DNA from: Bacteroidia bacterium
GTDB taxonomy: Bacteria > Bacteroidota > Bacteroidia > SpSt-205
Direction: 5' to 3'
Assembly (NCBI GenBank): GCA_025057135.1
Contig: JANWXY010000057.1
Span: 15,136-79,135 of the forward strand
DNA: 64,000 bases
Below, one piece after another: positions 3,553-63,372 of this stretch. The translations under genes were made by a program, and so were the position numbers. The notes under the pieces were generated by a model. The model saw only the letters and a program-made list of their open reading frames with translations. It was not told where the DNA came from and made no database searches. Each line of letters starts with the position of its first letter. Positions within the stretch are counted from its first letter, which is position 1.

Positions 3553-3577
3553 ATGGCAAAGCTAACAAAAAAGCCCC

Positions 3578-4534
3578 TCAGGCCGAACGCTTCACAAACT
3601 GCTCTCTCTTATATAGCAAGCGATCCAAGGTGTGCCGGGAGATAATATACACAAAATACGGGGAGTGCCAGAGCCGCACATAATAGTGCAGGGCACTGCT
3701 CGAATGCGGATAGACGCTCCAGTGGTACTTTTTCCCTTTCCATAAAAACAGCTGAACCTCAGCTATGGTTGAAAGCCCCACCAGAGAGTCCGCCGAAGTC
3801 AGCTCATCCGCATAAAAAGGCCCTGAATATGCCATGAGATACTCAGCTACCGCGAAGGAATCTACCGGCTCTTCTGTGGCTAAACGCCAAGGAGCATTGG
3901 GCTGAGGGCGCTCTAAACGCCAGCTCTTCTCTGGCTCGCCTGTATAATCCACCTGTATAGCGTAGAGGTCTGCGACTCGGGCATCAAACATTTGATTGGA
4001 CTGCCAAACGCCAAGGTCAGGATAATACCGAGAGGTCAAATAGCCTTCCAAGCCTGGCAGAAAGACTTCATAGGGTTGGTCACTCCCAGGACGCAGCATG
4101 TAAGTAGCAAATTGGTCAGGCGTCGGTCCCCCTACGTAAAACTCCTCTTCTCTGCCATCGCGAAAACGCAGCGTAACCTCTATACGATGCTCTCGCAAAA
4201 AGGAAAGCACATTTTTCAGAGCATTCTGAGGCACAGGAGCTCGGGGCGTCTGCGCAACAAGTGTGCGCAGAAGGGTCTGTAATGGCTGCTCAAAGACAGG
4301 CAAAGTATCCCCGATGAGCCATCCTTTTGGGGTTCTGCGCAAATCTATGCGGCGAAAAATCGTGTCTGCGTGCTTCTCTACCAGGTGTATCTCAACAATG
4401 GCGCCTGTATCCGGAAAAGCGAATCGTTTTTCAGCTTCGGCTCTCCGGGCGGCTATCTGCCCTCCCCATATTACTACGCCGATAGCTACAAGCAGTACGA
4501 CTAATAGTGCAATAGATGCCCAAGAGACCTTCAT
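3578..4534 (-). CDS. membrane-anchored hypothetical protein (possibly a DUF4340-like partner of GldG)
   Basis: 318 aa with an N-terminal TM helix 'IALLVVLLVAIGVVIW'. Its 4-nt overlap with the upstream GldG-like gene suggests co-translation. No catalytic motif was recognised. Confidence 0.35.
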   Translation of the reverse strand: MKVSWASIALLVVLLVAIGVVIWGGQIAARRAEAEKRFAFPDTGAIVEIHLVEKHADTIFRRIDLRRTPKGWLIGDTLPVFEQPLQTLLRTLVAQTPRAPVPQNALKNVLSFLREHRIEVTLRFRDGREEEFYVGGPTPDQFATYMLRPGSDQPYEVFLPGLEGYLTSRYYPDLGVWQSNQMFDARVADLYAIQVDYTGEPEKSWRLERPQPNAPWRLATEEPVDSFAVAEYLMAYSGPFYADELTSADSLVGLSTIAEVQLFLWKGKKYHWSVYPHSSSALHYYVRLWHSPYFVYIISRHTLDRLLYKREQFVKRSA

Positions 4535-6222
4535 ACCAGCGATCGCCTGTATTTATGACGCCGCCAAAGGTATAGCCCCACACCAAAAACCACCATCACA
4601 ACTACGGGTAATCCCAAGTTAAACGCCTGTATAAGCAGGGGATTACGGCGCACAATATCCGGATTCAGTCGGCGCAGCTGCACACTCCTACTACGCACTT
4701 GAGTGAGGGTCGTTTCTCCTGTGAGGTAATCTATGCAGTTCAGTAGGAAGGTCAAATTGTCCAACGGAGTGTAGTCCGCAGCGCGCCCCTGCACCTCCGA
4801 GGGCAAAGCAAACTCTCCGTCAGTAATAAAAATGGCTTTGCCCGGAAGGCCAGATTCAGGTAGAAACCTCGCTGTGGGGGGATTGGGAGCATATGCATCC
4901 GTAGGTGGTTCTCTGTCTACGAATACCGAAGTAAATCGCCCTTCGCTCAGCACCGCCATTGGTCGGAAGCCCTTTCCTTTGAAGGTCTCAGGATTGGGAG
5001 GATTCTTGACTGTGAGGTTTATATCTATCATTTGCGTGCCCTTGACGGACCGGCTTATGGGAGAGCTAAGCGCTAAAATCGTGTGCTTAATCCCTGGGCG
5101 GGAAATAGTATCTACGCTCCCTGCGTATCGGTATAAAACAGCATCCACCGTGCGGGTAACGGGATGAGCAGGAAAGATATACACGATCGGATAATATAGC
5201 CATTTTTCTGCTCCCCAGACCGGACCGTCATAGTACCCCTTTATGAGCTCAATATATCCACAGGAGAAGTCTTGAACAAGGTCATATCCTGGCCGCCATC
5301 CCCAGCGGAAAAATAGATCATCTAAGTTTAGCTCACGCAGAAGTACCAGCGCACTCCCCTCCGATAAATTGATACGATGATGGTCTAAAAGCCAGAGCAA
5401 ACGCCCGCCCCGCAGAAGATACTGCTCCAACTCATACTTTTCCCGCTCGGTAAAGGCACTATCCGGTCCAATCACTACTATCGCCGCAAAGCCATCCCCT
5501 GAAAGTTTTTTCTGGAGGGTCTCAGGTAGGTAGGCTTTGGCAGGCGCGAGGGCTTGCCCTTCTCGAACGCGCACAGGCACCAAACGGTAGAACTTTCCCA
5601 ATTCAGCCTCTAACTGAGGCATCTGCGACAGGCTGTATTCCCCATGACCGCTCAGAAAGCCCAAAATTGGCTTACTACCGTGCGTAGCGATTTGGCGGAG
5701 GGCCGCAGCGATTTTGTATTCTACCTCCTGCTCAGCTTCTAATAGGTCTATTTCCCCAGTAGGACGAAAATGGCCTTTGACCAAATCCACCCAGATATCC
5801 TGCTGTCCCGCATGAATCGTCGCCACAGGATACATGTACTGACGGCGCGTCTCAGTCTGAGAAACCCGTACATTGATAGGTATCGGCTGGATGCCGTGCT
5901 GCTTGAAGAGGCGCAGAACCTGTGGATTTTTAGAGGGGTTGACAAATGTATAGTTGAAAGGCTTAGGAGCCACAGCGCGCATCTCTGCTAGCATAGTCTC
6001 CACAGCCCGTTTGTATCTTTGGATAGGATACGGAAAATCCCCCTCTAAATACACCGTCACATAGGTGCTCTGAGGCATTCGCTTGAGGATTTCCCGCGTC
6101 CCTTCGGAGAGGGTGTAGCGCTTTTCCTCCGTCAAATCTACTCGCAGAAAGTATCTCCCCCCCAGAAGGTATAGTAGTATTAGCGCGGCGACTAAAATGA
6201 GTAGCTGCAGGAGATTTTTCAT
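4531..6222 (-). CDS. gldG: GldG-like ABC-transporter auxiliary component (gliding-motility-associated)
   Basis: 563 aa with an N-terminal TM helix (LLILVAALILLYLL) and a C-terminal TM helix (LPVVVMVVFGVGLYLW). This size and topology are typical of GldG, and it overlaps the start of the upstream ABC-2 permease. Confidence 0.55.
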   Translation of the reverse strand: MKNLLQLLILVAALILLYLLGGRYFLRVDLTEEKRYTLSEGTREILKRMPQSTYVTVYLEGDFPYPIQRYKRAVETMLAEMRAVAPKPFNYTFVNPSKNPQVLRLFKQHGIQPIPINVRVSQTETRRQYMYPVATIHAGQQDIWVDLVKGHFRPTGEIDLLEAEQEVEYKIAAALRQIATHGSKPILGFLSGHGEYSLSQMPQLEAELGKFYRLVPVRVREGQALAPAKAYLPETLQKKLSGDGFAAIVVIGPDSAFTEREKYELEQYLLRGGRLLWLLDHHRINLSEGSALVLLRELNLDDLFFRWGWRPGYDLVQDFSCGYIELIKGYYDGPVWGAEKWLYYPIVYIFPAHPVTRTVDAVLYRYAGSVDTISRPGIKHTILALSSPISRSVKGTQMIDINLTVKNPPNPETFKGKGFRPMAVLSEGRFTSVFVDREPPTDAYAPNPPTARFLPESGLPGKAIFITDGEFALPSEVQGRAADYTPLDNLTFLLNCIDYLTGETTLTQVRSRSVQLRRLNPDIVRRNPLLIQAFNLGLPVVVMVVFGVGLYLWRRHKYRRSLV

Positions 6223-6950
6223 GGATGGCGACGACTGAGTTGAAAGTGCGCTAAACCAAGACTGAAAGCAATCACGCTCAGATAATATAAAATATCCCGG
6301 CTGTCTAAAACCCCCCGACTCAAGCTGCGGTAATGCTCCATCAAGCTAAGCTGAGCAAGCATTTCCTGAAAAAACCGCCCCACAGGGAGTTCTGAGGCAA
6401 ACTCAAACCCAATCAGCCATACAAAGCCCAATAGGAGCCCAAGCAAAAAGGCGATAATCGTATGCACAGTAAGCGTAGATGCCCATATACCCAGGGCGGA
6501 GAGGCTAAGTCCCAGAGCAAAAAGTCCAACGTACGCCCCCTGAATGGCTCCATGGTCTATATTTCCGCGAGGTTGCGCCAGCCAAGAAATGGAGATGTAA
6601 AATACCCCCGTAGGAACCAGCGCAAATCCAATCACCGCAGCCACAGCGAGATACTTTGCCAGAAGGATACCCCAGCGCGAGATGGGAGCAGTAGCTAATA
6701 GCTCATATGATCCCGTCCGAAACTCCTCCGAAAAACTCCGCATGGTGAGAGCGGGGGCTAAGAAGAGTAAAAACCACGGAGCTATACTAAAAAATGCATC
6801 CATTTCAGCTGCACCGGTTTGAATCACCCCACCAGAAAAAACCCACAAAAATAACCCCGTACCGACCAGAAATATAGCCCAGGTAAGATAGGCAATAAGC
6901 GAATGGAGAAGGGCAAAAACTTCTTTTCGCCAGAGGGCAAGCACGGGCAC
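6219..6950 (-). CDS. gldF: ABC-2 family permease, GldF-like
   Basis: 243 aa polytopic membrane protein (about 6 TM helices) of ABC-2 permease size. It sits immediately upstream of, and overlapping, the GldG-like gene. No cognate ATPase (gldA) is adjacent. Confidence 0.5.
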   Translation of the reverse strand: MPVLALWRKEVFALLHSLIAYLTWAIFLVGTGLFLWVFSGGVIQTGAAEMDAFFSIAPWFLLFLAPALTMRSFSEEFRTGSYELLATAPISRWGILLAKYLAVAAVIGFALVPTGVFYISISWLAQPRGNIDHGAIQGAYVGLFALGLSLSALGIWASTLTVHTIIAFLLGLLLGFVWLIGFEFASELPVGRFFQEMLAQLSLMEHYRSLSRGVLDSRDILYYLSVIAFSLGLAHFQLSRRHP

Positions 6951-8457: not shown

Positions 8458-10863
8458 GTGTCCTATCTTCGTTCCATGGCAGGCACGGATGTGCTTTCTC
8501 GTCGTAGGATGCTCCTCAGCCTTGGGGTTGGAATAGCGGGGCTGTATATCCTGACTGCTGTGCTTGCGTATTTTGCGAGTTATACCGAGGACCTGCCTGC
8601 CCTAGAAGGCGCACCCACAGCTGTACCCTTGCAAAATCCCACTGGCTGGCTTGGAGCCAAAATCGCCCATCGTCTCGTTTATAGGGGATTCGGATGGGTA
8701 GGTATCCTGTTCCCCATCGGGCTTCTGTATATAGCTTTCAAGTGGTCTCAGCGGCGACCAGTTCCTCTAAGGGCTCTGGGCTGGGGAGCTGCTGTGATTT
8801 ATTTAGCTGCTACCTTTGGCGGCTGGCTGGTGCAAGCGGGATGGGTAGAGGACCTCATCTGGTGCGGAAGTGTCGGAGCTGCTTTTGCTGCATGGCTCAG
8901 CTTATACATAGGTAGCGTAGGACTTTTTATCACCTGGCTTGCGTTGCTGGGTGCAGCTGGGGTCGCTTTTATCTACCCCTACATCCGCCTGAGAAACCGA
9001 GAAGCGCAGCCCCCACCTATAAACTATCAGACAGCTTCCTCCAGCCCCGAAGCCGAAGAACAAGCGCCCAACCCCTCTTCCCTATGGTATGAAGTCGTAC
9101 ACAACCCGATACAACCACCAACACCTCCTTTCAGAAAAAAGGATAGCCCTTCGGAGACTGACAGTCAGGTCGCTATTTTGACACCTCCAGCAGAAGAGGA
9201 GCCTCTCAATCCTACGGAGAGTGAGCTGGATTTAGAGATTATCCATACCGATACACCTACTCCCTCCGAGCAGGTGCATTCCTCTGAGTATGATGCAGCA
9301 GAAAACCCCGTGAGAGATACCAATACCGAACTCAGGGCGACAGGACTTCCACGCACAGAGGAGCCCAGAGAAAGAAAACCCGCTATTACAGCGGCTTCGC
9401 CGCAGCATACATTCCCTCCTCTCTACCTTCTCAGTCAAACTGAACGCAGCATCACCCCGCCCATCTCCCCCGAAGAGTTAGAAGCCCATAAAGAGCAAAT
9501 CGTCCGCACGCTGAGGCAATACGGGATAGAACTGACCCGTATTACAGCGACGGTCGGACCGACCGTCACACTTTTTGAAGTGGTGCCAGCCCCAGGCATT
9601 CGTATCAGTCGGATTAAGAGCTTGGAGGATGATATTGCCCTGAGCTTAGCCGCTTTGGGGATACGGATTATTGCTCCTATGCCCGGAAAAGGCACCATAG
9701 GAATAGAAGTTCCTAATGCTCGTCCCAGAACCGTGCCTCTTTCAGAACTTTTGGAAGCCCCTGAGTACCAAAAAACCTCCGCCCAGCTGCCCTTAGCTAT
9801 CGGAAAAACTATCACAGGTGAAGCCTTTGTACGGGACCTCGCACAGATGCCCCACCTCCTTATCGCTGGCGCCACTGGCCAGGGCAAATCTGTCGCTCTC
9901 AACTGCATGATCCTCTCCCTGCTCTATAAGCGCTCACCAGACGAGGTACGGCTTGTCTTGATTGATCCGAAAAAAGTAGAGATGAGCCTTTATCAAGGCT
10001 TGGAGGAGCATTACTTAGCTCGGATACCTGGACTACCCGAAAGAATCATCACCGAGGTAAAACATGCCCTCCCTGCCCTCCAAAGTCTCGTGCAAGAAAT
10101 GGAAATGCGATATGAGCTCCTAAAAGAACTCCGTGTCCGCAACATTACAGAGTATAATCGCCGCTGCAGAGAAGGGCAGGTCCCCGAAGGTCATCACCCA
10201 CTACCGTACATCGTATTGATTATTGATGAGCTGGCAGACCTGATGATGACTGCTGGCAAAGAAGTAGAAACCCCCATCTGCCGATTAGCGCAGCTGGCTC
10301 GTGCTGTGGGCATTCATCTGATAGTGGCTACTCAACGCCCCTCTGTGAACGTCATCACAGGTCTCATCAAAGCTAACTTTCCAGTACGCATCTCTTTCCG
10401 AGTAGTGTCTCGGGTGGACTCCAGAGTCATATTAGATGATGATGGAGCAGAGAGGCTAATCGGACGGGGAGATATGCTTTTCGCTATGGGTACAGAAATG
10501 ATTCGGTTGCAGAGCGGCTTCGTTAGCACGAGCGAAATTGAAAGTGTCGTAGAATACATCCAACGACAACCCATCCCCGTCCCTTATGAGCTACCCGAAC
10601 CGCCAGCCCAGGAAGCCAGTGAAGAGGAGTCCCCCGAAGACATCGGAGAACGAGACCCCCTCTTCTATGAAGCCGCTCTTCTCATAGTACGCAATCAATA
10701 CGGCTCCACTTCCCTACTCCAACGGAAGCTGGGAGTCGGCTTTAATCGGGCTGGACGACTCATGGACCAGTTAGAGCGAGCAGGCATAGTAGGACCCGCA
10801 CGGGGAAGCAAACCCCGAGAAGTCCTCATCCAAGACGAAAGCCAATTAGAGGTATTTCGCTGA
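8458..10863 (+). CDS. ftsK: DNA translocase FtsK
   Basis: 801 aa. N-terminal TM helices, a Pro/Glu-rich linker, an ATPase domain with Walker A 'GATGQGKSV' and Walker B 'IVLIIDELADL', and a C-terminal gamma (winged-helix) domain 'YEAALLIVRNQYGSTSLLQRKLGVGFNRAGRLMDQLERAGIV'. Confidence 0.92.
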   Translation: MSYLRSMAGTDVLSRRRMLLSLGVGIAGLYILTAVLAYFASYTEDLPALEGAPTAVPLQNPTGWLGAKIAHRLVYRGFGWVGILFPIGLLYIAFKWSQRRPVPLRALGWGAAVIYLAATFGGWLVQAGWVEDLIWCGSVGAAFAAWLSLYIGSVGLFITWLALLGAAGVAFIYPYIRLRNREAQPPPINYQTASSSPEAEEQAPNPSSLWYEVVHNPIQPPTPPFRKKDSPSETDSQVAILTPPAEEEPLNPTESELDLEIIHTDTPTPSEQVHSSEYDAAENPVRDTNTELRATGLPRTEEPRERKPAITAASPQHTFPPLYLLSQTERSITPPISPEELEAHKEQIVRTLRQYGIELTRITATVGPTVTLFEVVPAPGIRISRIKSLEDDIALSLAALGIRIIAPMPGKGTIGIEVPNARPRTVPLSELLEAPEYQKTSAQLPLAIGKTITGEAFVRDLAQMPHLLIAGATGQGKSVALNCMILSLLYKRSPDEVRLVLIDPKKVEMSLYQGLEEHYLARIPGLPERIITEVKHALPALQSLVQEMEMRYELLKELRVRNITEYNRRCREGQVPEGHHPLPYIVLIIDELADLMMTAGKEVETPICRLAQLARAVGIHLIVATQRPSVNVITGLIKANFPVRISFRVVSRVDSRVILDDDGAERLIGRGDMLFAMGTEMIRLQSGFVSTSEIESVVEYIQRQPIPVPYELPEPPAQEASEEESPEDIGERDPLFYEAALLIVRNQYGSTSLLQRKLGVGFNRAGRLMDQLERAGIVGPARGSKPREVLIQDESQLEVFR

Positions 10864-10876
10864 AAGTCTGTATCTT

Positions 10877-11890
10877 TTGCCTATGTGGTTCGTCACAGGA
10901 GCGACAGGATTTGTAGGATACAGCTTTTTAAAGGAGTGGGAACGGCGCGAGTATCCTGTACCTCTGCGCCTCTTGGTCCGCAATCCGAAACATCCTGTCC
11001 TCAAGCCCTACCTCGGGAAAGTTGAGCTCGTCCATGGCACCCTCACTGACACAGAGGTATTGATAGAATACTGTCGCGGCGCAAATGCAATCATACATGC
11101 TGCAGCGACCATCAGTTTTTCACCCCGCAGCCGAACATGGATGCACAAAACGAATGTAGAAGGGACCAGAAACTTAGTCAATGCTGCGATTGAGGCAGGA
11201 GTCCAAAGATTTGTCTATCTCAGCTCCATAGCTGCACTGGGGCGCCCTGCCTCACCCGACGGGCTAATCACCGAAGACACACTTTGGCAAGACTCCCCTT
11301 ACAATACTTTCTACGGCTACACAAAGTACCTCGGCGAAAAAGAAGTGTGGCGAGGAGGTGAGGAAGGCTTATCTGTCATAGTCTTCAATCCCGGCATCAT
11401 CTTAGGACCTTACATAGACTGGCGTAAAGGCTCTCCGGCTTTCTTTCGCATGGTGTCGCAAGGACTTTTAGCCTATCCCGTAGGAACTAACGGTTTCGTC
11501 GGCGTGCAAGATGTCGTTCAGGCGATATTTCTGAGCTTAGATAAGCATCCGCATGGATGGGGAGAACGATATATACTCGTAGCAGAAAACTGGAAATACC
11601 AAAAAATTTTCGCAGAAATAGCCCATGCTGTAAAAAAAGCTCCACCCCGCTTTCCAATACCTAAGGAGTTGGCGGTGGGGGTAGGCTGGATGATGGAAAA
11701 AGTAGGACGATGGTTCGGGCTACCCGCTGCGGTGACCAGAGAAACAGCCCGTACCTCTAGCTCGGACTTTTTATACGATGGGAGCAAAATCACCCGCACT
11801 TATCCAGAGTTTCAATATACTCCGATTAAAAGCGTCATTCAGGAGACAGCCAAAATGTTTTTACAACATGCGCGTACAGCTCAACGGTGA
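10877..11890 (+). CDS. NAD-dependent epimerase/dehydratase family protein
   Basis: 337 aa. N-terminal Rossmann motif 'VTGATGFVGYSF' and catalytic 'YGYTK' (Y-x-x-x-K), indicating an extended SDR fold. Confidence 0.75.
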   Translation: MPMWFVTGATGFVGYSFLKEWERREYPVPLRLLVRNPKHPVLKPYLGKVELVHGTLTDTEVLIEYCRGANAIIHAAATISFSPRSRTWMHKTNVEGTRNLVNAAIEAGVQRFVYLSSIAALGRPASPDGLITEDTLWQDSPYNTFYGYTKYLGEKEVWRGGEEGLSVIVFNPGIILGPYIDWRKGSPAFFRMVSQGLLAYPVGTNGFVGVQDVVQAIFLSLDKHPHGWGERYILVAENWKYQKIFAEIAHAVKKAPPRFPIPKELAVGVGWMMEKVGRWFGLPAAVTRETARTSSSDFLYDGSKITRTYPEFQYTPIKSVIQETAKMFLQHARTAQR

Positions 11891-12074
11891 GTCCATCGTA
11901 CTATCGCAGGGCATAAACATTGAGACGCTCCTTCGGCAACTGAACATAGACCCTCAACAAGTCGGCATCGCCGTGGCTGTGAACCGTCGCGTCATCCCAC
12001 GCCCTCAATGGAAGCATACCATCTTGTCCGATGGCGACCAGATAGAGCTGGTGTATGCCCGACAAGGCGGTTGA
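11868..12074 (+). CDS. thiS: sulfur carrier protein ThiS
   Basis: 68 aa from internal Met 'MRVQLNGESIVL...DGDQIELVYARQGG'. It has a ThiS/MoaD fold signature and a C-terminal Gly-Gly. The longer ORF in the track (11778) overlaps the epimerase and is probably over-extended. Confidence 0.7.
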   Translation: MRVQLNGESIVLSQGINIETLLRQLNIDPQQVGIAVAVNRRVIPRPQWKHTILSDGDQIELVYARQGG

Positions 12075-13173
12075 AATAGGGATTATTGGTGCGGGGGCTG
12101 CCGGCTTGGGCATAGCTTGGCAGCTGGCTCTGCGAGGGCATCCTCCCGTAGTTTTTGAAGCTAACCAACCCGGAAGCGGTGCCATGACCGCCTCCGGAGG
12201 CATGCTCTCTCCTGCCTATGAAGCTGAGTATGAGGAGCTCCCGCTCCTGCATGCCATGATGCAAAGTCGGGAAATGTACCGCCACTGGGCTGCACAACTC
12301 GGCGATATTGGGTACGCCGAGTCAGGCACCTACGAACTCGCTATTTTGCCAGAGGATGTTCCGTATGTGCAACGGCGTGTAGCGTTTGAGCAAGCTCAGG
12401 GGCTAAAAGTAGAATGGCTGGAGGGTCAAAATCTGAGAAAGCGACTGCCAATGCTCTCGCCGCGGATACAGGGAGGCAGCTACGCCCCAGACGAAGGCCA
12501 CGTCATCCCAGAGCTTCTGCGTGATCGCCTTGTGGAGGCGATTCATCACGCAGGCGGAACCATCCTGACCCAGACACCAGTATCTCTCATAGAACCCCTC
12601 GGAACAGGCTTCCGTCTGCACACGCCCAGAGGTACTTATACGGCTCAAAGGCTTCTGGTCTGCACAGGTGTGCCTTTGGGAGGCTTAGAGCTTCCCTTCA
12701 AGGTTTATCCTATTCGGGGACAAATGCTCGCCATTGAAAATCCCAGCCCTGAATGGCTGCCTGCCCCAGTTCGGTACTTCAACAAACTGGCTGGCTATGG
12801 ATACGCTGTACCTAAACGGGGCTACATTATATTAGGCGGCACCGTGGAAGAGAAGGGGATAGATTTTTCTCTCACGTTTGGCGGTGTGCTGGATATCCTG
12901 CGTCGGGCTTATCATGTATTCCCGGACTTGTACGAGCGCCGAATCCTCCGCTTCTGGGCTGGCTTGCGTCCTGCCACCGCCTCACGCCTGCCCCTCCTGT
13001 ATCAATCCCCTGACGCCTCCTTATATTTCGTAAATGGTCTTTACAGAAATGGCATATTACTCCTACCCCTAATCGGAGAGGGCGTCGCTGAGTGGATCAG
13101 CAGGGGCACCCTCCCACAGGTATTACAGCCATTTTGGGTCCGAGAACTGCCCCAGGTTAGAGATACGGTCTGA
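12055..13173 (+). CDS. thiO: FAD-dependent glycine oxidase (ThiO-like)
   Basis: 372 aa. N-terminal FAD dinucleotide-binding motif 'IGIIGAGAAGLGIAWQLALRG' of the DAO family. It lies immediately after thiS and overlaps it by 20 nt. Confidence 0.65.
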   Translation: MPDKAVEIGIIGAGAAGLGIAWQLALRGHPPVVFEANQPGSGAMTASGGMLSPAYEAEYEELPLLHAMMQSREMYRHWAAQLGDIGYAESGTYELAILPEDVPYVQRRVAFEQAQGLKVEWLEGQNLRKRLPMLSPRIQGGSYAPDEGHVIPELLRDRLVEAIHHAGGTILTQTPVSLIEPLGTGFRLHTPRGTYTAQRLLVCTGVPLGGLELPFKVYPIRGQMLAIENPSPEWLPAPVRYFNKLAGYGYAVPKRGYIILGGTVEEKGIDFSLTFGGVLDILRRAYHVFPDLYERRILRFWAGLRPATASRLPLLYQSPDASLYFVNGLYRNGILLLPLIGEGVAEWISRGTLPQVLQPFWVRELPQVRDTV

Positions 13174-13193
13174 CTTGTGGATTATACCGCTGA

Positions 13194-13868
13194 GTGGTCT
13201 ATTTGTGCAGTCAAATCCAAACTTTTATTTACAATCCAGTCCGAAAGCTGGATGGTGCGTATATTTGTCTCACCATGCATCGGGTCATCTTGGGGTTTGC
13301 TATCGGTTGGCTAAGTTTTTTGTGGAAAACCCATGTATCTCCCCTTCCAGAGTACGAGTCTTCCTCCCAAACTTCAAACTTAGCGGAAGTATGGGTAGTG
13401 CGAGTACTCTTTGAGGGGAAGGATAAGGGCGAAGTAGAGCTGCATTTCATTTATCCCTCGGAGAAAAAAGTCATCCGAGCCTTTGTTTCTCAAGGACAAG
13501 CTCAAATATCCATGTCTCTGAGCGAATCTCTGAAAGAAGTAGTAGCGTATGGAGTGGGACATTTACCTGTCAGGCTGATGAAAATTTCGCATACGAAACG
13601 AGAGTTAGATTTCACTGACCCCAAAAATCTACATCCAAATAGTGGGTATATTCTCCGTCAGGGGCGCGCTTATTTAGCTGCGGGCGAGTTAGGACAGCTA
13701 CCTGAGCAGCCAAATCCAATCATAAATGCATATGATGTAGAAATGTTTCTCATCGCCCAAAAGCAGCAAGACCTGCGAGCCGACTTCAACGATGATGGTC
13801 GCGTGGATGAAGGAGACTTTCACCTTTTGGTCAAAAATCAAAATCGCCTCTTACAGACCGAACTATGA
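13194..13868 (+). CDS. exported hypothetical protein with C-terminal dockerin-like Ca-binding repeat
   Basis: 224 aa. A probable real start is at Met 13275 ('MHRVILGFAIGWLSFLW', a signal/TM segment). The C-terminus 'DFNDDGRVDEGDFHLLVKNQ' matches the dockerin/EF-hand-like DxNxDGxVDxxD repeat. A 4-nt ATGA overlap couples it to the next gene. Confidence 0.45.
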   Translation: MVYLCSQIQTFIYNPVRKLDGAYICLTMHRVILGFAIGWLSFLWKTHVSPLPEYESSSQTSNLAEVWVVRVLFEGKDKGEVELHFIYPSEKKVIRAFVSQGQAQISMSLSESLKEVVAYGVGHLPVRLMKISHTKRELDFTDPKNLHPNSGYILRQGRAYLAAGELGQLPEQPNPIINAYDVEMFLIAQKQQDLRADFNDDGRVDEGDFHLLVKNQNRLLQTEL

Positions 13869-14854
13869 AAAGGCTCTTTTGTATATCCTTCCTGGGGCTT
13901 TCATGGGCACAAGATAGCATTCGTGCTGTGAGCCGCATGGTAGGAGATTTTGTAGAAGTAGCTTTTTACTGGCGCGGAGCCCCTGCGCATGTACCTATCG
14001 GCGCCAACTTCGTCTTAGTGGGCAGGCCAGCGGCCGCACTCGCATGGCGCGAAGCGAATCTATATACCACCGGACAGTGGAGCGCGCCACACTCTACCGT
14101 CTATCGTCCCCTTTACCTCACAGCTCGGGAGGAAAGCAGCCATGCGTTTCGTATAAGTATGAACTTACTCACACAAAACCCACCTACTGGCATTCCCCTC
14201 TCGGATACCTGGTCCCTGATAGGTACTTGGCGAGCTCCTGTGATGCGTTTCAATGATACTTTGCATTTAGCTTGGAGTATGGAGACGGGGGAAATTGTGC
14301 TCGCTCCTTTCGTACGAGCAAAGTCATACTTTACCTATGTCGCCCCACTGCCCCTTAGGCTGTGCCCTGACTTCCCTCGCCTCCACCTCATTAGACAAGA
14401 CGAGCAGCTTGGCATCGTAGGATTGGAACACTTTCGCTCAGAGAACTTATCTATTCGCTGGTATAGAGACGGCGTACTCGTTCATGAGGGCATATCATGC
14501 ATTCCACTCATCGCCGGCTCCTACCATGCCGAAGTGCAACATGTCTGCGGAAGTGTAACCAGAACCGATACAATCACATGGAGCTCCACCAGTGTAAGCG
14601 CGACCGTGCAGGGAGGTTGGAGAATTTATCCCAATCCCACCAACGGGTTGGTATGGATAGAGTCTCCTAAAACTTGCTGGGCAGAAATCCAACTCCGAGA
14701 TGGTGTAGGACGCACAATATACATGCATTCTGAAACCTTCAAGTCCAGCCAAGCTCAATCCATCAATCTCCCAAGCCTACCAACTGGGCTTTACTATTTG
14801 AATATTCGTACGGAACAGGAGACCATCTCTTTGCCTATATCCTATGCGCCATAG
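13865..14854 (+). CDS. secreted protein with T9SS type-A C-terminal sorting domain (Por_Secre_tail)
   Basis: 329 aa with signal peptide 'MKRLFCISFLGLSWAQ'. The C-terminal ~80 aa 'IYPNPTNGLVWIES...LPTGLYYLNIRTEQETISLPISYAP' is a typical CTD-A beta-sandwich. Confidence 0.7.
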   Translation: MKRLFCISFLGLSWAQDSIRAVSRMVGDFVEVAFYWRGAPAHVPIGANFVLVGRPAAALAWREANLYTTGQWSAPHSTVYRPLYLTAREESSHAFRISMNLLTQNPPTGIPLSDTWSLIGTWRAPVMRFNDTLHLAWSMETGEIVLAPFVRAKSYFTYVAPLPLRLCPDFPRLHLIRQDEQLGIVGLEHFRSENLSIRWYRDGVLVHEGISCIPLIAGSYHAEVQHVCGSVTRTDTITWSSTSVSATVQGGWRIYPNPTNGLVWIESPKTCWAEIQLRDGVGRTIYMHSETFKSSQAQSINLPSLPTGLYYLNIRTEQETISLPISYAP

Positions 14855-17591
14855 AGGATGGCTAATATATCTTCTAACTGGGCTATTGTCCGCCCAGTAT
14901 ACTTACAATGCCTTTTTCATCCAGATATACCAGCCCAGTGGCAATCTAACTACACCCGACTCTCTGGATATTTATATTTGCATAAGGCGCAGTGGCACTG
15001 GAAATAATGATACGTTGGCATCCTCTAACTTTCCGTTTTTTTACAATACCACGGCCCTAAACTTTAGCGGTGCTCGTATTTTATACCGAAATAAGTTTCA
15101 CGATAACAACTATTACGCTCCCCTGAGCTATTCAGTTTCTGGCGGACAGGTCAATGTAACCGTTCAGCGGAAAATAGGATACGCTCCGCCGGGAGATATC
15201 CTTGATACTTTGGATACTTTGATGGGGTTGCGAGTGCCGCTATACGCTTGTGGGCAGAACCTTACGAGCCCTCTCGTATGGAATAGTGCCCCTGCAGCCG
15301 TGCTCAATTCCCAGCTGCAAAGCCTCAAGCCCCGAATGACATGGCGCAATGATACGCTCTACTTATGTCCTAACTTTTCGATTACCTCTGCACCGAGTAT
15401 CTCTACTTCCGTATCCCCTATCTGTCCGAATAGATATATCTCCTTTACACTGGGCATGTCTGGCTTGTTTTTACCAGACAGCTTTATCGTAGTAGTGCAG
15501 CAGACGGCGCCCTCCACCTCTACACCGATTATTTATCCGAATATAGTCACCCAATCTGGGGGAGCATATCAATTTTCTCTCAGCTTCCCCTCAAGTGGCA
15601 CATACGCTGTGCAAGTAGTGGGGATATACAAAAAGTGCTTATGCAGCAGTCCAATCGCAAGTACGAGTGTAATCGTTTCGCCTGAGCCCGCTCAGCTCAA
15701 TATCTACGGCCGCGACACGATATACGCAGGCGGCACAGCAGCTTATACACTTTCTCAATCGCCTCAGACCGCTTCCTGGTCTATGACAAATAGCGGAGGC
15801 AGTACCACGCTTTCCTGCACAAATGCCCCCTCCTGCTCTATTACATTTCCCTCAACTCCTGCTCCTCCGAGGATTGATACGATTTTAGTGAGTTATACTC
15901 TTTCTGGAACGCCCTGTGCAAAAAAAGCTATCAAGTATGTAGTCGTCCTACCCTGCCCCACAAACGGTGGTACGATAACAACTACCGCCACCAACTTGTG
16001 TCCAGGACAGCGCGCTGAGCTCACTCTCGCCGGTGCGCCACCTGGTTATGATAGCCTGCGCTGGCAGATATATGATGGCTCTGCGTGGAACTTCATTACC
16101 ACTCAGGGCACTGGCATGACGCAACCTACCTACATTACTCCCCCTCTCACCGCAGGTAGCCATCAGTACAGGGCTATTTTATACTACGGTGGATGTAGAG
16201 CGATAAGTGCGGACATCACAATCAATGTATCGGGTAGCTTACTTGTTCGGGAGTTTTATGGCCTCCAAACGCCTGTCTGCGTCGGAGATACTATCCAGTT
16301 ATATGCAGAAGGTCCGGGCGTATGGTACACGCCAAACGGTCAGGGTGTTTTCTCCTCTCCTAATGACCCAAAAGGCGAATACATCCCCGCCCCGTCTGAC
16401 ACCGGACAAATCCAAATATGCTGGGTTATCCTCCCGCAGGATACGAATCAGTGCCGTGATACTCGTAAAGACACCTTATGTCTCTATGCAACAGTCACCC
16501 CTTCAGATGCCAGTGGGGACTTCTCAATACCGCCTGGTGAAGATACCATCTGCTTAGGCGGACGCGTGGCTCTATTTGGACAGATATTTTCTGGGGCGGG
16601 CGGATTCTGGGTAGCTGATAGTGCTTCGGGAGGATTTTATCCAGATATTTTCAGCCAGCAAGCTTACTACATACCTGGAGCAGGTGATGTAGGAAGGTGG
16701 ATTCGCATAGCATGGGTAGTAGGTGGGAATGCCTGTGGAGTAGCTGCTTACATAGACTCTGTATATGTAGACGCAGGCACACCGGTCAAAATACTCGCTC
16801 CGAATGCCGTATGTGACAATGTAGCTCTCAGTTTATCAGCCATCCCCCCCATGGATAGCTTATTATGGTTCCGCGGTAGCGTAGCTTCTGTCCTAGCAAA
16901 TGGTGGTTTCACAAGGAGTAATCCACGCTTTCTCACGAGTGGCCCTTCGTATGATGCAGGGGTTCTACCTGCTGGTACCGATACTTTCTGTGTGTATATG
17001 CGGCAAGGCGTATGTGAAAGCGTGGATGAGTTTCCTGTGCGTGTAGCCTCATCTCCTCGTGCAGCCTTCGACGCCTCTCCAAGAATCACTACCATGAACA
17101 ATCCACAAATCACCTTCACCTCTCAATCACAAGGGGCCAACTCCTACACTTGGGATTTTGGGGACCTCAATAGAATAACCGTAGATAGCACACAAACCGT
17201 CGTAGAACACGCTTATGCTGCGCCGGGCACCTATTCTGTGGTGCTTTATGTGCAAAATCGGCTGGGGTGTTCTGACTTCTATGTATGCACGGATTGTATT
17301 CAAATCCTTCCACGCAGGGTCTATCTACCAAATGCCTTTTCCCCCAACGGAGACGGAAAGAATGATTCCTTCCGCATACTACCTTTGGAAGAGAGGTTCC
17401 GCTTCACTAGACTGGAAGTTTTTGATAGATGGGGGCAAATAGTTTTCTCAGGGGATGATATTGCCGAATGGAAAGGTGAAGGCAGAGACGGACGCCCTTT
17501 GGATGCAGGAAGCTATTCGTACAGAGCAATAATCTTGATTCCTGATGAAGGCCTATTCACTTATACTGGGGTGGTGCATATTGTGCGGTAG
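14844..17591 (+). CDS. large cell-surface adhesin-like protein with PKD domain and T9SS type-B C-terminal domain (gliding-motility-associated CTD)
   Basis: 915 aa with signal peptide 'LIYLLTGLLSAQ'. It has Cys-rich Ig-like repeats and a PKD motif 'YTWDFGDLN...GTYSVVLYVQN'. The C-terminus 'YLPNAFSPNGDGKNDSF...FDRWGQIVF...W.G...G..L..G.Y.Y' matches the type-B CTD (TIGR04131). Confidence 0.75.
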   Translation: MRHRGWLIYLLTGLLSAQYTYNAFFIQIYQPSGNLTTPDSLDIYICIRRSGTGNNDTLASSNFPFFYNTTALNFSGARILYRNKFHDNNYYAPLSYSVSGGQVNVTVQRKIGYAPPGDILDTLDTLMGLRVPLYACGQNLTSPLVWNSAPAAVLNSQLQSLKPRMTWRNDTLYLCPNFSITSAPSISTSVSPICPNRYISFTLGMSGLFLPDSFIVVVQQTAPSTSTPIIYPNIVTQSGGAYQFSLSFPSSGTYAVQVVGIYKKCLCSSPIASTSVIVSPEPAQLNIYGRDTIYAGGTAAYTLSQSPQTASWSMTNSGGSTTLSCTNAPSCSITFPSTPAPPRIDTILVSYTLSGTPCAKKAIKYVVVLPCPTNGGTITTTATNLCPGQRAELTLAGAPPGYDSLRWQIYDGSAWNFITTQGTGMTQPTYITPPLTAGSHQYRAILYYGGCRAISADITINVSGSLLVREFYGLQTPVCVGDTIQLYAEGPGVWYTPNGQGVFSSPNDPKGEYIPAPSDTGQIQICWVILPQDTNQCRDTRKDTLCLYATVTPSDASGDFSIPPGEDTICLGGRVALFGQIFSGAGGFWVADSASGGFYPDIFSQQAYYIPGAGDVGRWIRIAWVVGGNACGVAAYIDSVYVDAGTPVKILAPNAVCDNVALSLSAIPPMDSLLWFRGSVASVLANGGFTRSNPRFLTSGPSYDAGVLPAGTDTFCVYMRQGVCESVDEFPVRVASSPRAAFDASPRITTMNNPQITFTSQSQGANSYTWDFGDLNRITVDSTQTVVEHAYAAPGTYSVVLYVQNRLGCSDFYVCTDCIQILPRRVYLPNAFSPNGDGKNDSFRILPLEERFRFTRLEVFDRWGQIVFSGDDIAEWKGEGRDGRPLDAGSYSYRAIILIPDEGLFTYTGVVHIVR

Positions 17592-18564
17592 ATTAGCCGC
17601 TCAGGAGCTCCTACCCATAGGATTATGGTCGCAGCCGCAAGCTCTGAGTCCTGCGATGGTAGGGTTGATAGATGGTAAAGCACGATTAAGTCTAACACAT
17701 CAGTTTCGCCCTCCGACTGGTTTTACAAACTTCAGCACGACATGGATGGGTATAGAAGCTCCTTTTCAGTTAGGAGAACTCCCCGCTGGTGTGGGGGGCT
17801 TACTACTTTCCGATGCGGCAGGAGGATGGCGAACGATAAAGGCTGTACTCAGCTTCGCTTACGAAGCTCCTCTGGGCAGTCGCGCCCGATATGATCATTT
17901 ACGAGGAGGCCTCTACGCAGGTTTTGTCAATCGGTCTATACAATCCACAGACCTATATTTTGAAGACCAGTTTGATGGAATCACCTTTTCTCGTCCGACT
18001 ACGGAAACCTTTGACCGCACGACGCTATGGCACGCAGACATGGGGCTTGGGGTACTGTATTATAGAACGCAAAAAGTGCCCGGTAATGTAGAGCTGGTCC
18101 CTTTTGCTGGCTTCTCTGTCGCTCGTCTCAATCGCCCGAGTATTGGGATACTTGTACAAGATGCCGCTCGTCTTTCTCTCTTGTGGTCTATACACGGGGG
18201 GGCGCGATTATTTACGCGTGCGCCGCTTCAGTTGGTCGGAAGTGTGCTTCTCAATCGTTCTAATCAAAGCTCTTGGATAGGAGGGAGCTTGTTAGCAGAG
18301 TTTGTCATCTACGAGGGGGGATACTGGCACACTCGCCCTCTGGGCTCCGTCATAGCAGGGGGGACTTTACGAGCTCGGGACCAATACGCCCTGACCGCAG
18401 GCTTCACCCTGCAGAAGGGACTTTCTTTCGGACTGTCATATAGCCTGCTGACACGAAGGGCGACGACCCCTACGGCTTTTGGAGGATTACAACTTATGAT
18501 GCATTACCAGATAGGATACAGCTACCGCGAGAGAGGCACCGTGTATCCATTCCCTATTTTCTGA
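17545..18564 (+). CDS. T9SS membrane protein PorP/SprF family
   Basis: 339 aa with signal peptide 'MKAYSLILGWCILCGRLAAQE'. The N-terminal region ('SPAMVG...LSLTHQFR') resembles the PorP/SprF consensus, and the residue composition is beta-barrel-like. It sits directly downstream of a type-B CTD cargo, which is the canonical arrangement. Confidence 0.65.
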   Translation: MKAYSLILGWCILCGRLAAQELLPIGLWSQPQALSPAMVGLIDGKARLSLTHQFRPPTGFTNFSTTWMGIEAPFQLGELPAGVGGLLLSDAAGGWRTIKAVLSFAYEAPLGSRARYDHLRGGLYAGFVNRSIQSTDLYFEDQFDGITFSRPTTETFDRTTLWHADMGLGVLYYRTQKVPGNVELVPFAGFSVARLNRPSIGILVQDAARLSLLWSIHGGARLFTRAPLQLVGSVLLNRSNQSSWIGGSLLAEFVIYEGGYWHTRPLGSVIAGGTLRARDQYALTAGFTLQKGLSFGLSYSLLTRRATTPTAFGGLQLMMHYQIGYSYRERGTVYPFPIF

Positions 18565-18565
18565 T

Positions 18566-20092
18566 ATGGCGAGAGAAATGGCGGCAGTCTTATCTGCGAT
18601 GCGCTCTCAAAACCGGAGTCTTTCTGGGCGTCGTGAAGTCATAATTTTCGGCAGTGCGGTTATTTCACTTAGCATTTTAGGCTTGGTACTGATTTTCTGG
18701 GTGTCGGCTGACTGGCGGGGGTATGTAATAGGTGCTTTATGGCTCGGTGTAATAGGCTTTGGAAGCTCCTTAGGTTGGAATGTATGGCGATCCGCTCGGC
18801 GTTACAAAGAATCCGCTGCCTTAGAAGCACGGGAAACTATACTTCGCATAGAGGGACGATATAAAGCTCTCATTCAGTATGCCTCGGATATATTCCTAAT
18901 CTTGGATAAAAACGGATGGGTAACTTATGCAAGTCCATCTTTACAGCGGACACTGGGCTATGCCCCCCATGACATAGAAAAGCACGATTTAGCCGAAATC
19001 GTCCATTCAGAAGATATGCCGCTCGTGGGCAGCGCCGTACAAAGGCAAAGTTCAGCAGCCTTCACCGTACGCCTGCAACACCGAGAGGGTTACTGGCGAT
19101 ATTTTGATGCAATTGGACAGCCCCTTTACACTGATCCGATTATCCAGGGATACCTTCTCACCCTTCGGGATGTCACAGACCGCAAGCGCGAGGAAGCTCA
19201 ACGCCGAGAGAAAGAAGCCGCAGCCCTCCGACTCGCCGTGGAACGCGAGCGCGCTGAATATGAGAAACAGCTAATTGAACAAAGTCGCCGGCAACTTGAA
19301 GAAGCGTACAAGATTATAGAATCTAAAAATCAGGAAATAGAGGAAAGTCTTCAATATGCAGCCCGCATACAGCAGGGCATGGCAGCGCCGATTAGCTTGA
19401 TAAGGGAATACCTACCCGAGAGCTTCATTTTCTGGAGGCCTCGGGATATAGTAAGTGGAGATTTCTACTGGTTTGCTGCCGTAGGTGAGAAGATTTACAT
19501 CGCTGCGGCCGACTGCACAGGACATGGGGTACCAGGCGCACTTATGACGATGATAGCTTCCTCTACTCTTACCCAGGCAGTGCTCGGAGAGGGATTGCGC
19601 AGCCCGGATGAAATTCTAAGTGCAGCGCATCGTATCCTCAGACGAGCTCTCCGGCAGGATGTGCCCGGAGCTACTTCACAAGACGGCATGGATATTGCGC
19701 TTTTGTGCTTTGAAGGCTCCCGAGTCTTATACGCCGGAGCCAATCGCCCCCTCTGGATACTTGAACCTGACGCTCAGGAAGTCAAGGAGTATGCCGCTGA
19801 CCGCAAGGGCATTGGTGGCGCCTCTGCCCCAGCTCAGCAGATTTTCACTTTACATGTAATTGAGCCTCCCAAGGGTAGCTGGATATACATGTCCTCAGAC
19901 GGATATGGGGATCAGTTTGGTGGTCCCGAGGGACGCAAGTATATGGGCAAACGCTTCAAAAGATTTTTATCCCAGCTTGGCTCTCTATCGCCTGATGCCC
20001 AAGCAGAAGCCCTCCGAGTAGAATTGGAAAACTGGATGGGCAGCCAACATCCACAAATAGATGACATTCTCGTCGTCGGTGTGCGCTTGTGA
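18566..20092 (+). CDS. membrane-anchored PAS-domain / PP2C-type (SpoIIE family) serine phosphatase
   Basis: 508 aa. Two N-terminal TM helices, a PAS fold ('YASDIFLILDKNGWVTYASPSLQRTLGY'), a coiled-coil, and PP2C/SpoIIE motifs 'SGDFYWF...IAAADCTGHGVPGALMTM' and 'SDGYGDQFGG'. Confidence 0.8.
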   Translation: MAREMAAVLSAMRSQNRSLSGRREVIIFGSAVISLSILGLVLIFWVSADWRGYVIGALWLGVIGFGSSLGWNVWRSARRYKESAALEARETILRIEGRYKALIQYASDIFLILDKNGWVTYASPSLQRTLGYAPHDIEKHDLAEIVHSEDMPLVGSAVQRQSSAAFTVRLQHREGYWRYFDAIGQPLYTDPIIQGYLLTLRDVTDRKREEAQRREKEAAALRLAVERERAEYEKQLIEQSRRQLEEAYKIIESKNQEIEESLQYAARIQQGMAAPISLIREYLPESFIFWRPRDIVSGDFYWFAAVGEKIYIAAADCTGHGVPGALMTMIASSTLTQAVLGEGLRSPDEILSAAHRILRRALRQDVPGATSQDGMDIALLCFEGSRVLYAGANRPLWILEPDAQEVKEYAADRKGIGGASAPAQQIFTLHVIEPPKGSWIYMSSDGYGDQFGGPEGRKYMGKRFKRFLSQLGSLSPDAQAEALRVELENWMGSQHPQIDDILVVGVRL

Positions 20093-20110
20093 TTTTGTAA
20101 GTTTGCCTAC

Positions 20111-28385: not shown

Positions 28386-28456
28386 GGCGACGTGGCCGAG
28401 CGGTTAGGCACGGGTCTGCAAAACCCTCTACGGGAGTTCGAATCTCCCCGTCGCCT
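28386..28456 (+). tRNA. tRNA-Cys (anticodon GCA)
   Basis: 7-bp acceptor stem ggcgacg/cgtcgcc. Anticodon loop 'cuGCAaa'. T-arm gggag-TTCGAAT-ctccc. CCA is not encoded. Confidence 0.8.
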
Positions 28457-29823: not shown

Positions 29824-29868
29824 AGGTCAAAGGTAGCGAGTATTTGATTTGGATATGTGCAGAAATCG

Positions 29869-29876
29869 TAGCTTTG
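29869..29876 (+). promoter_or_regulatory. Bacteroidota-type -7 element (TAgcTTTG) with upstream TTTG; putative tRNA-Thr promoter
   Basis: TAGCTTTG lies 10 nt upstream of the tRNA-Thr 5' end. TTTG at 29843-29846 and 29848-29851 is at about 17-18 nt spacing. Confidence 0.45.
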
Positions 29877-29886
29877 CAGTGGCTAA

Positions 29887-29958
29887 GCCATCGTAGCTCA
29901 GTGGCAGAGCACTTCCTTGGTAAGGAAGAGGTCGCCGGTTCAATCCCGGCCGATGGCT
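29887..29958 (+). tRNA. tRNA-Thr (anticodon GGT)
   Basis: Acceptor gccatcg/cgatggc. D-arm 'agctcagtggcagagc'. Anticodon stem cttcc/ggaag with loop 'uuGGUaa'. T-arm 'ccggttcaatcccgg'. Confidence 0.88.
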
Positions 29959-29960
29959 CT

Positions 29961-30560
29961 ATGCGGGTGTTGCCTGTAGTTTTCTGGTTTGCGTTAGGCA
30001 TACTGAATGCACAAGCAAGAGTCGGTATAGTATTAGCCCCCCAGGCAACTACCGCAAAAGGTCAAATGGATAAAGACTACTTTGTGTTAGGCTTTGCAGG
30101 CGGGCTATCTGGCGAGGTTTTATTTACCGAACGCGCAGCAGTAGGCATAGACTTACTCGGTTCTTTCGCTGGCTGGCGAGAGGAAGAAAGAAGTGGCAAC
30201 AGTTTCATCAAATCAGAGCATCGCCTCACGACCTTACAGGTACCTGTCTATGTGCGCGCCCAGTGGTTAGAGTTAGGAGAAGAAGGGGCTGGGTTGAGCG
30301 CAGTACTGGGCGTTCAGTCTGACGTGTTATTGGGTGCTCGGAGCCGATTGGAAGGGGCAAGGTTTAGCAAAAATGTGTCTGAATATAGTCGGTTCGCAGG
30401 CTCTCTCCTCGGTGGAATAGGCTTCTCATATGAGGGCGACTATGCCTTTTCGGTAGATGTACGAAGTGCTTATAGCTTTATCAATCTCAAGCGAAACAAA
30501 GGCGGCCGAATAAATCCTGCATGGTTCATGCTGCGCGTAGCTTTCTACTTCGGGCAGTGA
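29961..30560 (+). CDS. outer-membrane beta-barrel protein (porin/OmpW/PorT-like family)
   Basis: About 200 aa from Met 29961 with signal peptide 'MRVLPVVFWFALGILNAQA'. It has alternating hydrophobic beta-strand patterning and ends in aromatic-rich 'RVAFYFGQ'. The ORF-track start at 29844 runs across the tRNA and is rejected. Confidence 0.55.
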   Translation: MRVLPVVFWFALGILNAQARVGIVLAPQATTAKGQMDKDYFVLGFAGGLSGEVLFTERAAVGIDLLGSFAGWREEERSGNSFIKSEHRLTTLQVPVYVRAQWLELGEEGAGLSAVLGVQSDVLLGARSRLEGARFSKNVSEYSRFAGSLLGGIGFSYEGDYAFSVDVRSAYSFINLKRNKGGRINPAWFMLRVAFYFGQ

Positions 30561-63264: not shown

Positions 63265-63372
63265 GTAGCAAATATATCTGAAAACTTTCTCCGGGGATAG
63301 CCCGCCTGGCCTATCTGCTGTGAGCGTTTCAATATGCCATGAACAAGCGAGTTTTTGTTTATTTGTGCTGAG

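Follow-up and report, generated by a model that had tools for sequence, protein, structure and literature searches.

The 64-kb window analyzed here (64,000 nucleotides (nt) of contig JANWXY010000057.1, from a Bacteroidia bacterium) contains five consecutive genes, all on the + strand, which encode a dockerin-like protein, two proteins with type IX secretion system (T9SS) sorting domains, a PorP/SprF-like outer-membrane protein and, in the last position, a phosphatase in which a PAS domain is joined to a PP2C/SpoIIE catalytic domain. The association of this phosphatase with the surface-protein genes is the subject of this report. The open reading frames (ORFs), read from the sequence, extend over positions 13194-13868, 13865-14854, 14844-17591, 17545-18564 and 18566-20092. 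Genes 1 and 2 overlap by 4 nt (ATGA at 13865), genes 2 and 3 by 11 nt (ATG at 14844, TAG at 14854) and genes 3 and 4 by 47 nt (ATG at 17545, stop at 17591); gene 4 is separated from gene 5 by the single nucleotide 18565 (TGA-T-ATG). An earlier note on this DNA had described the same overlaps and gap, and all the junctions were verified in the sequence.

Gene 3 (14844..17591, + strand) codes for a 915-amino-acid (aa) cargo protein whose N-terminus, MRHRGWLIYLLTGLLSAQ..., was judged by eye to be signal-peptide-like. A PKD domain was located at residues 745-811 (nt 17076-17276; PKD_4, 44.8 bits) and a type-B T9SS C-terminal domain (CTD) at residues 828-895 of 915 (nt 17325-17528). The latter exceeded the cutoffs of both models used, CHU_C PF13585 (55.3 bits, cutoff 27) and TIGR04131 (36.3 bits, cutoff 35), and the description of gene 3 as a PKD/type-B CTD protein given in the earlier note was thus confirmed. 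The product is presumed to be a surface adhesin.

Gene 4 (17545..18564, + strand) codes for a 339-aa PorP/SprF-like outer-membrane protein. The PorP/SprF assignment stands on the PF11751 (PorP_SprF) match, 61.5 bits against a cutoff of 22.3 over model positions 18-260 of 273, and on the NCBI annotation, which carries the same label; in TIGR03519, however, the protein scored 80.5 bits, below the cutoff of 90.55. Because of this last score we place gene 4 in a divergent PorP/SprF subfamily, and just 28 word-sharing homologues were found for it.

Type-B substrates need a PorP/SprF-like partner of their own, as a rule the product of the next gene downstream. The partner receives the substrate from the translocon and retains it on the cell surface; the two are thought to be produced in matching amounts (PMC12618676, PMC9143113). 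The position of gene 4 directly 3' of gene 3, with the 47-nt overlap, follows this usual, though not universal, rule, and the pairing of cargo and shuttle proposed in the earlier note agrees with the published one (PMC12618676, PMC9143113). By analogy, the gene 4 product presumably shuttles and anchors the gene 3 cargo.

Gene 5 (18566..20092, + strand) codes for a 508-aa phosphatase, predicted to be anchored in the inner membrane. From the N-terminus it comprises a hairpin recognized by hydropathy (residues ~24-74, nt 18635-18787), a PAS domain (residues 96-212, nt 18851-19201; TIGR00229, 55.9 bits), a charged coiled-coil linker (residues ~205-265) and a SiaA-type PP2C/SpoIIE domain (residues 227-507, nt 19244-20086; PF07228, 53.8 bits, cutoff 25). 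The first membrane helix (residues 23-50) is strongly hydrophobic, with a Kyte-Doolittle value of 2.7; the second stretch (residues 52-74) is weaker, ~1.4 as estimated by hand. Basic residues flank the hydrophobic stretches on both sides, which, by the positive-inside rule, suggests a hairpin with two transmembrane segments. The PAS and PP2C domains named in the earlier note were confirmed; of its two transmembrane helices only the first is strongly hydrophobic, and the hairpin itself is a prediction.

The closest solved relative of the PP2C part is SiaA of Pseudomonas aeruginosa (PDB 6K4E; E 2.5e-38, 281 residues aligned). Over residues 224-507 gene 5 scored 180 bits in NF038263, the SiaA equivalog model, far below its cutoff of 700. 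In the catalytic and metal-binding motifs of the PPM domain, residues D299, D316, G319-H320-G321, D373, D445, D449, D499 and D500 do not vary among 30 orthologues, and the enzyme is therefore very probably active.

The genomic contexts of gene 5 orthologues were collected by eleven protein look-ups and by scanning metagenomes with the PAS-linker region, which is specific to the orthologues; loci are referred to by number (L001 and following). Full-length orthologues formed a clear series with identities between 100% and 37%, and none came from a source other than uncultured 'Bacteroidia bacterium' genomes and metagenomes. In 16 of the 18 loci with upstream DNA a PorP/SprF gene was located directly 5' of the orthologous phosphatase (the window, L001, L002, L003, L085-L089, L091-L094, L096, L099 and L172), at gaps of 1 to ~100 nt, and in all 16 a type-B CTD/PKD cargo of 739-3486 aa was found 5' of the PorP gene; cargo orthologues in this size range were placed in this way in 18 loci. 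Loci seeded with PorP homologues had the phosphatase downstream in two of three cases.

The background set for these counts consisted of other Bacteroidota PP2C paralogues with TPR, 7TMR and PAS-GAF architectures (80 loci, L005-L084). It was obtained from a genome-contig profile scan with the full-length orthologue alignment, in which the matches listed were generic paralogues only; all background counts refer to those listed matches. An iterated PorP profile found PorP in 0 of 71 upstream neighbours, and PorP_SprF did not appear among the top Pfam families on either side (71 upstream, 78 downstream neighbours). The adjacency of PorP and PP2C genes, which the earlier note had proposed to look for across Bacteroidota, was present in 16/18 orthologous loci, versus 0/71 for the other PP2C genes listed. 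Together with the domain models and the promoter motifs described below, this made up the refuting tests named in that note, and all of them turned out in its favour.

Type-A T9SS CTDs occurred in 7/71 upstream and 4/78 downstream neighbours of the listed background genes, and SprB repeats in 3. These counts may exceed expectation and could hint at a wider link between these SiaA-type phosphatases and T9SS cargo.

The orthologous loci fell into two clades. In the near clade (at least 53% phosphatase identity, window included) all five genes were kept together with the exact 47-nt overlap of cargo and PorP, which was identical in L001, L002, L085 and L169, and FtcD-LpxD usually followed 3' of the phosphatase. 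In the far clade (37-49% phosphatase identity) the order cargo–PorP–phosphatase was found within entirely different flanks. The divergence between the two clades is deep, since GcpE is just 47% identical between the window and the far-clade locus L097.

In the far clade a SUKH (SMI1/KNR4) gene of ~155-180 aa was located directly 3' of the phosphatase in 12/12 loci (L003, at 11576-12073, L086, L087, L088, L096, L097, L098, L100, L101, L171, L172 and L173), overlapping the phosphatase gene in some of them. In the window's clade SUKH never occupied the position after the phosphatase. Polymorphic toxin systems are known to use SUKH proteins for immunity (PMC3113570), and no link between SUKH and PP2C phosphatases was found in the literature searched. 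The constant far-clade arrangement could mean that phosphatase and SUKH are the core, an immunity-like or adaptor pair in which the cargo is toxin-like and SUKH its antidote, with the window's clade a remnant lacking SUKH. We regard this as highly improbable: PKD, Ig-like and CHU_C domains were detected in the cargoes and no toxin domain in any of them, the window's clade has no SUKH gene at the locus, and where phosphatase and cargo are separated SUKH remains with the phosphatase and not with the cargo.

The two genes upstream of the cargo are also part of the conserved arrangement. Gene 2 (13865..14854, + strand) codes for a 329-aa signal-peptide protein with a type-A T9SS sorting domain at residues 254-322. 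As the earlier note had stated, this is a type-A CTD, and both models were above cutoff (PF18962, Por_Secre_tail, 41.4 bits, cutoff 27; TIGR04183, 36.3 bits, cutoff 23). The N-terminal region matched no family. A single-sequence AlphaFold2 model was poor (predicted local distance difference test (pLDDT) 43), with the CTD as its sole confident part. Gene 2 is homologous to a ~429-aa type-A CTD protein encoded 5' of the far-clade cargo (E 7e-15 to gene 2 of L085), so that this gene, and more weakly gene 1, is homologous in both clades. The N-terminal region of gene 3 (14844-15500) weakly resembled that of the gene-2-like type-A CTD protein of a far-clade locus (L003:1890-3179) in BLASTP, with E 0.001 and 23% identity; the cargo and the type-A CTD protein may share an uncharacterised N-terminal domain.

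Gene 1 (13275..13868, + strand) codes for a 197-aa protein. The maximal ORF begins at GTG 13194, the start taken in the earlier note; this was corrected to ATG 13275, the methionine from which the orthologues align and from which the NCBI annotation gives a 197-aa hypothetical protein. The N-terminus resembles a signal peptide and there is no T9SS CTD. An AlphaFold2 model built on a 4-sequence alignment (pLDDT 73.8) predicts a beta-sandwich (~residues 38-134) and, after it, a C-terminal two-helix tail, which is dockerin-like and EF-hand-like. Conservation is highest in the last 60 residues of the protein.

The tail scored 20.5 bits in two stretches against dockerin PF00404, short of the cutoff of 22.9, and 17.4 bits against NF041540, below its cutoff of 29. 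A Foldseek search with the model gave no match at E <= 0.001, with X-module-dockerin chains among the top entries at E ~0.1. 'Dockerin-like', the term of the earlier note, seems a fair label for the tail, but a true type I dockerin it does not appear to be, both models being below cutoff. Cohesin-like N-terminal domains in genes 2 and 3 were considered as binders of the tail and rejected, as no Pfam match was obtained even at E <= 5; the same test gave merely marginal pairwise similarity (E 0.001).

Promoters were searched by a pattern scan for the Bacteroidota −7 box, consensus TAnnTTTG, as used in PMC6847099, PMC9723704 and PMC7366714. A match, TATATTTG (13260..13267, + strand), stops 7 nt short of the ATG of gene 1 and is the putative promoter of the module. 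The box is conserved at this place in the near clade: L001, L085 and L089 have an exact TAnnTTTG at a distance of 12-15 nt from the ATG of gene 1, and L091, L093 and L169 have a variant one base shorter, TAnTTTG, before the same ATG. A second match, TAAGTTTG (20098..20105, + strand), occupies part of the 18 nt that separate the phosphatase stop from the ftcD ATG at 20111, and the identical TAAGTTTG was present at the equivalent place before ftcD in L001, L002 and L089 (four genomes with the window). This putative promoter would be independent, would serve the downstream housekeeping genes and would mark the 3' boundary of the module. Two more matches were located within gene 3, at 14973 and 17380.

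In 8 loci the 120 nt that precede the phosphatase start contained no −7 box, while gene 1 and ftcD each have one, in agreement with the earlier note, which had placed the phosphatase gene in a common transcript. The boundaries are marked in other genomes: L001 has a divergent gene 5' of gene 1, and a convergent gene follows immediately 3' of the phosphatase in L085 and L169. These neighbours and the motif positions point to one transcription unit from gene 1 to the phosphatase, with ftcD on a promoter of its own. A sigma-70 promoter scan, a method unsuited to Bacteroidota, was at chance (11 versus 10.4 expected), as were terminators (8 versus 9.2).

In the whole window TAnnTTTG was over-represented, with 47 matches, among them 3557-3564(-), 13260-13267, 20098-20105 and 51048-55(-), against 30.4 ± 5.9 expected; none of 100 shuffles reached 47. 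Many of the matches end 4-13 nt before a start codon, which suggests leaderless or very-short-leader mRNAs in the source organism.

On the domain calls and the conserved gene order we lean, if only modestly, towards reading the locus as a conserved five-gene T9SS surface-protein module in which the phosphatase couples surface display to a regulatory state. The suggestion of the earlier note that deployment of the adhesin could be wired to phospho-signalling is an inference from gene order. Transcription would begin at the promoter directly 5' of gene 1 and end with the phosphatase gene, so that the phosphatase would be produced in fixed proportion with the surface-protein set. The cargo would cross the outer membrane through the T9SS, and its PorP-like partner would then keep it at the cell surface. 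The phosphatase would be anchored in the inner membrane and expose its PAS and catalytic domains to the cytoplasm, where the PAS domain would read a cytoplasmic signal and, together with the coiled-coil linker, turn the dimer on. Dimerisation through the linker is what switches PAS–coiled-coil–PPM phosphatases (PMC12143880), and by analogy this mode of activation probably applies to gene 5.

The active phosphatase would then dephosphorylate a serine/threonine-phosphorylated switch protein encoded elsewhere. Candidates for this protein are of the SiaC or STAS type, or a partner involving the far-clade SUKH protein. Display of the surface proteins would in this way be coupled to a change in regulation, either of transcription or of attachment and biofilm behaviour; in Pseudomonas, dephosphorylation of SiaC by SiaA controls biofilm formation (PMC7647112).

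Several observations weigh against such a coupling. L097 and L173, which belong to one sub-lineage, carry phosphatase and SUKH genes and lack PorP and cargo, and L170 carries cargo and PorP and lacks the phosphatase; because these loci break the order, the link between phosphatase and PorP is not obligatory. The invariant neighbour of the far-clade phosphatase is SUKH (12/12) and not PorP. The predicted periplasmic loop of gene 5 has ~5 residues and there is no periplasmic domain, so the enzyme could not sense cargo or PorP directly. The orthogroup is small, ~five clusters at 50% identity in a profile search of 1.84 billion representatives that was dominated by multi-PAS proteins, and it is known solely from uncultured genomes. 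The promoter evidence consists of motif matching, and the genome is so compact that unrelated genes are plausibly co-transcribed.

Also on that side, the window yielded no partner genes for the phosphatase: no SiaC or SUKH gene among all its ORFs of at least 50 aa, no STAS or SiaB in Pfam scans covering ORFs of at least 150 aa only, and no partner-switching kinase gene. No siaB (kinase), siaC (DUF1987) or siaD (diguanylate cyclase) gene was found next to gene 5 or elsewhere in the 64 kb. In one near-clade genome only, a gene for a SiaC-family (PF09345) phosphoprotein was located ~8 kb upstream of the phosphatase (L085:384-755). SiaC-family proteins were found in 3/78 downstream neighbours of the background PP2C genes, among the matches listed.

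The five genes are a section of a long co-directional and tightly packed run. On the 5' side lie FtsK (at 8458), an epimerase and ThiO, which ends at 13173; on the 3' side lie FtcD (at 20111), LpxD, LpxC/FabZ, an ABC ATPase, a DUF1571-LysM protein and an SDR protein. In the window 19 of 34 same-strand neighbour pairs have gaps of at most 5 nt (median 2.5 nt), and the close pairs include unrelated genes, such as the overlapping ftcD/lpxD and rpoC/NIF3. The earlier note had taken the tight junctions as a strong sign of co-transcription, a weight they do not bear, since spacing of this kind does not discriminate here. With tight spacing the norm in the window, the junctions of genes 1-5 alone say nothing on a functional link, and the case for membership of the phosphatase in the module rests on the comparative evidence.

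This packing brings in the main rival explanation, operon inertia: an unrelated cytoplasmic regulator would have joined the 3' end of an ancestral cargo–PorP operon and stayed there, functionally unconnected with the T9SS genes, because its departure would cost it the promoter. Tight packing of unrelated genes is usual in this genome, the parts have been separated at least twice without loss of either (L097/L173; L170), the phosphatase is without a periplasmic domain and no gene for a substrate was found nearby. Set against this, the trio of cargo, PorP and phosphatase persists while all the flanks change, across lineages as distant as the GcpE comparison indicates, and the 16/18 score has no counterpart among the listed paralogous phosphatases (0/71). 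The exception loci L097, L173 and L170 branch within groups of relatives that have the adjacency, and the order therefore seems to have been broken up secondarily in them. Gene pairs conserved at such depth are usually functionally linked. We therefore hold inertia to be unlikely, though it deserves serious consideration.

Another explanation, direct gating, places the action of the phosphatase at the secretion machinery: it would act on an inner-membrane or cytoplasmic component of the T9SS or gliding apparatus, or on a factor that this cargo needs, and would control export or movement of the cargo post-translationally. A hairpin anchor that lacks a sensor loop could place the enzyme beside inner-membrane machinery, and the junctions suggest co-expression in a fixed ratio with the cargo/shuttle pair. 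There is also a precedent for a third gene with a role in the shuttle: a PorE-like gene is the third member of several Flavobacterium johnsoniae operons (PMC12618676, PMC9143113), and this porE-like gene encodes a structural partner of the shuttle (PMC12618676). Nothing, however, supports control of the secretion machinery specifically. Ser/Thr phosphorylation of T9SS core parts was not found in the literature searched, the catalytic domain most resembles partner-switch phosphatases of the SiaA type, and some lineages hold the phosphatase with neither cargo nor PorP nearby. Direct gating is accordingly a decidedly doubtful explanation in our view.

Part of the arrangement reproduces known operons. 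In F. johnsoniae sprB-sprF and Fjoh_3952-3951-3950 and in Porphyromonas gingivalis PG1035-PorP-PorE a type-B CTD cargo is likewise followed by a porP/sprF-like gene (PMC12618676, PMC9143113), and the tight coupling of cargo and porP, seen here too, is consistent with matched production. The optional third gene of those operons codes for a PorE-like peptidoglycan-binding outer-membrane protein, whereas here it codes for an inner-membrane PAS–PP2C phosphatase; domain scans detected no OmpA/PorE-like domain in genes 1-5 or their immediate flanks. The present locus differs further by its two extra conserved upstream genes, the dockerin-like and the type-A CTD gene.

With P. aeruginosa SiaA, encoded by SiaABCD, gene 5 shares the linker and PP2C domain, the membrane anchoring and, presumably, a small phospho-switch substrate. 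It differs in falling far below the equivalog cutoff, in having a cytoplasmic PAS domain as sensor and in its T9SS gene neighbours; the N-terminus of SiaA is periplasmic and of the HAMP type. The architecture of sensor, coiled-coil linker and PPM domain is shared with RsbP/RsbU-type phosphatases. Unlike in those systems, the protein is here membrane-anchored, its genomic partners are cargo and shuttle, and no STAS or anti-sigma kinase genes were found nearby.

The literature search found no link of PorP/SprF or type IX secretion to PP2C, SpoIIE, RsbU or partner-switching. For this reason we consider the conserved PAS–PP2C phosphatase and the two upstream accessory genes to be the new addition to a cargo–PorP pair that is itself well described. 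To our knowledge, little is known of how production or display of type-B cargo and shuttle is regulated.

Some further features of the window and of related loci were recorded. On the − strand, an ABC-2 membrane protein (6219-6950) and an ABC_transp_aux/DUF7088 protein (4531-6222) are encoded by genes overlapping by 4 nt, a pair which we take to have the gliding-associated GldF/GldG architecture (4531-6950); it is followed by a 318-aa protein without Pfam match (3578-4534, − strand). A 1142-aa protein at 59998-63426 (− strand) gave a weak right-handed beta-helix match. In L085, two proteins of 1058 and 1062 aa encoded directly 3' of the module (10640-17213, − strand) gave faint Beta_helix and Por_Secre_tail matches.

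Rfam matches in the window were three tRNA genes only, at 28386, 29887 and 31872, all outside the gene 1-5 region. The maximal ORF of an OMP_b-brl_2 protein (29844-30560) overlaps the same-strand tRNA gene at 29887-29958, so its real start must be farther 3'. A search for direct and inverted repeats in the gene 1-5 region gave just short chance matches.

A bolder version of the coupling would assign to the phosphatase, together with SUKH in the far clade, the dedicated control, from the inner membrane, of a T9SS branch specific to one cargo: it would gate the export or surface mobility of its own type-B cargo by dephosphorylating a secretion or gliding component, or would report the state of the cargo/PorP complex to the cytoplasm. 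We think this improbable; were it true, no earlier case would be known in which Ser/Thr phosphorylation controls individual T9SS cargo/shuttle pairs. A small and uncultured host range limits the weight of the finding. Within that range, the module gives a genomic context to an orphan SiaA/RsbU-type phosphatase, a kind of which Bacteroidota have many, and a third-position phosphatase kept in deeply diverged lineages is a candidate link between adhesin display and an intracellular Ser/Thr phospho-switch in this phylum.

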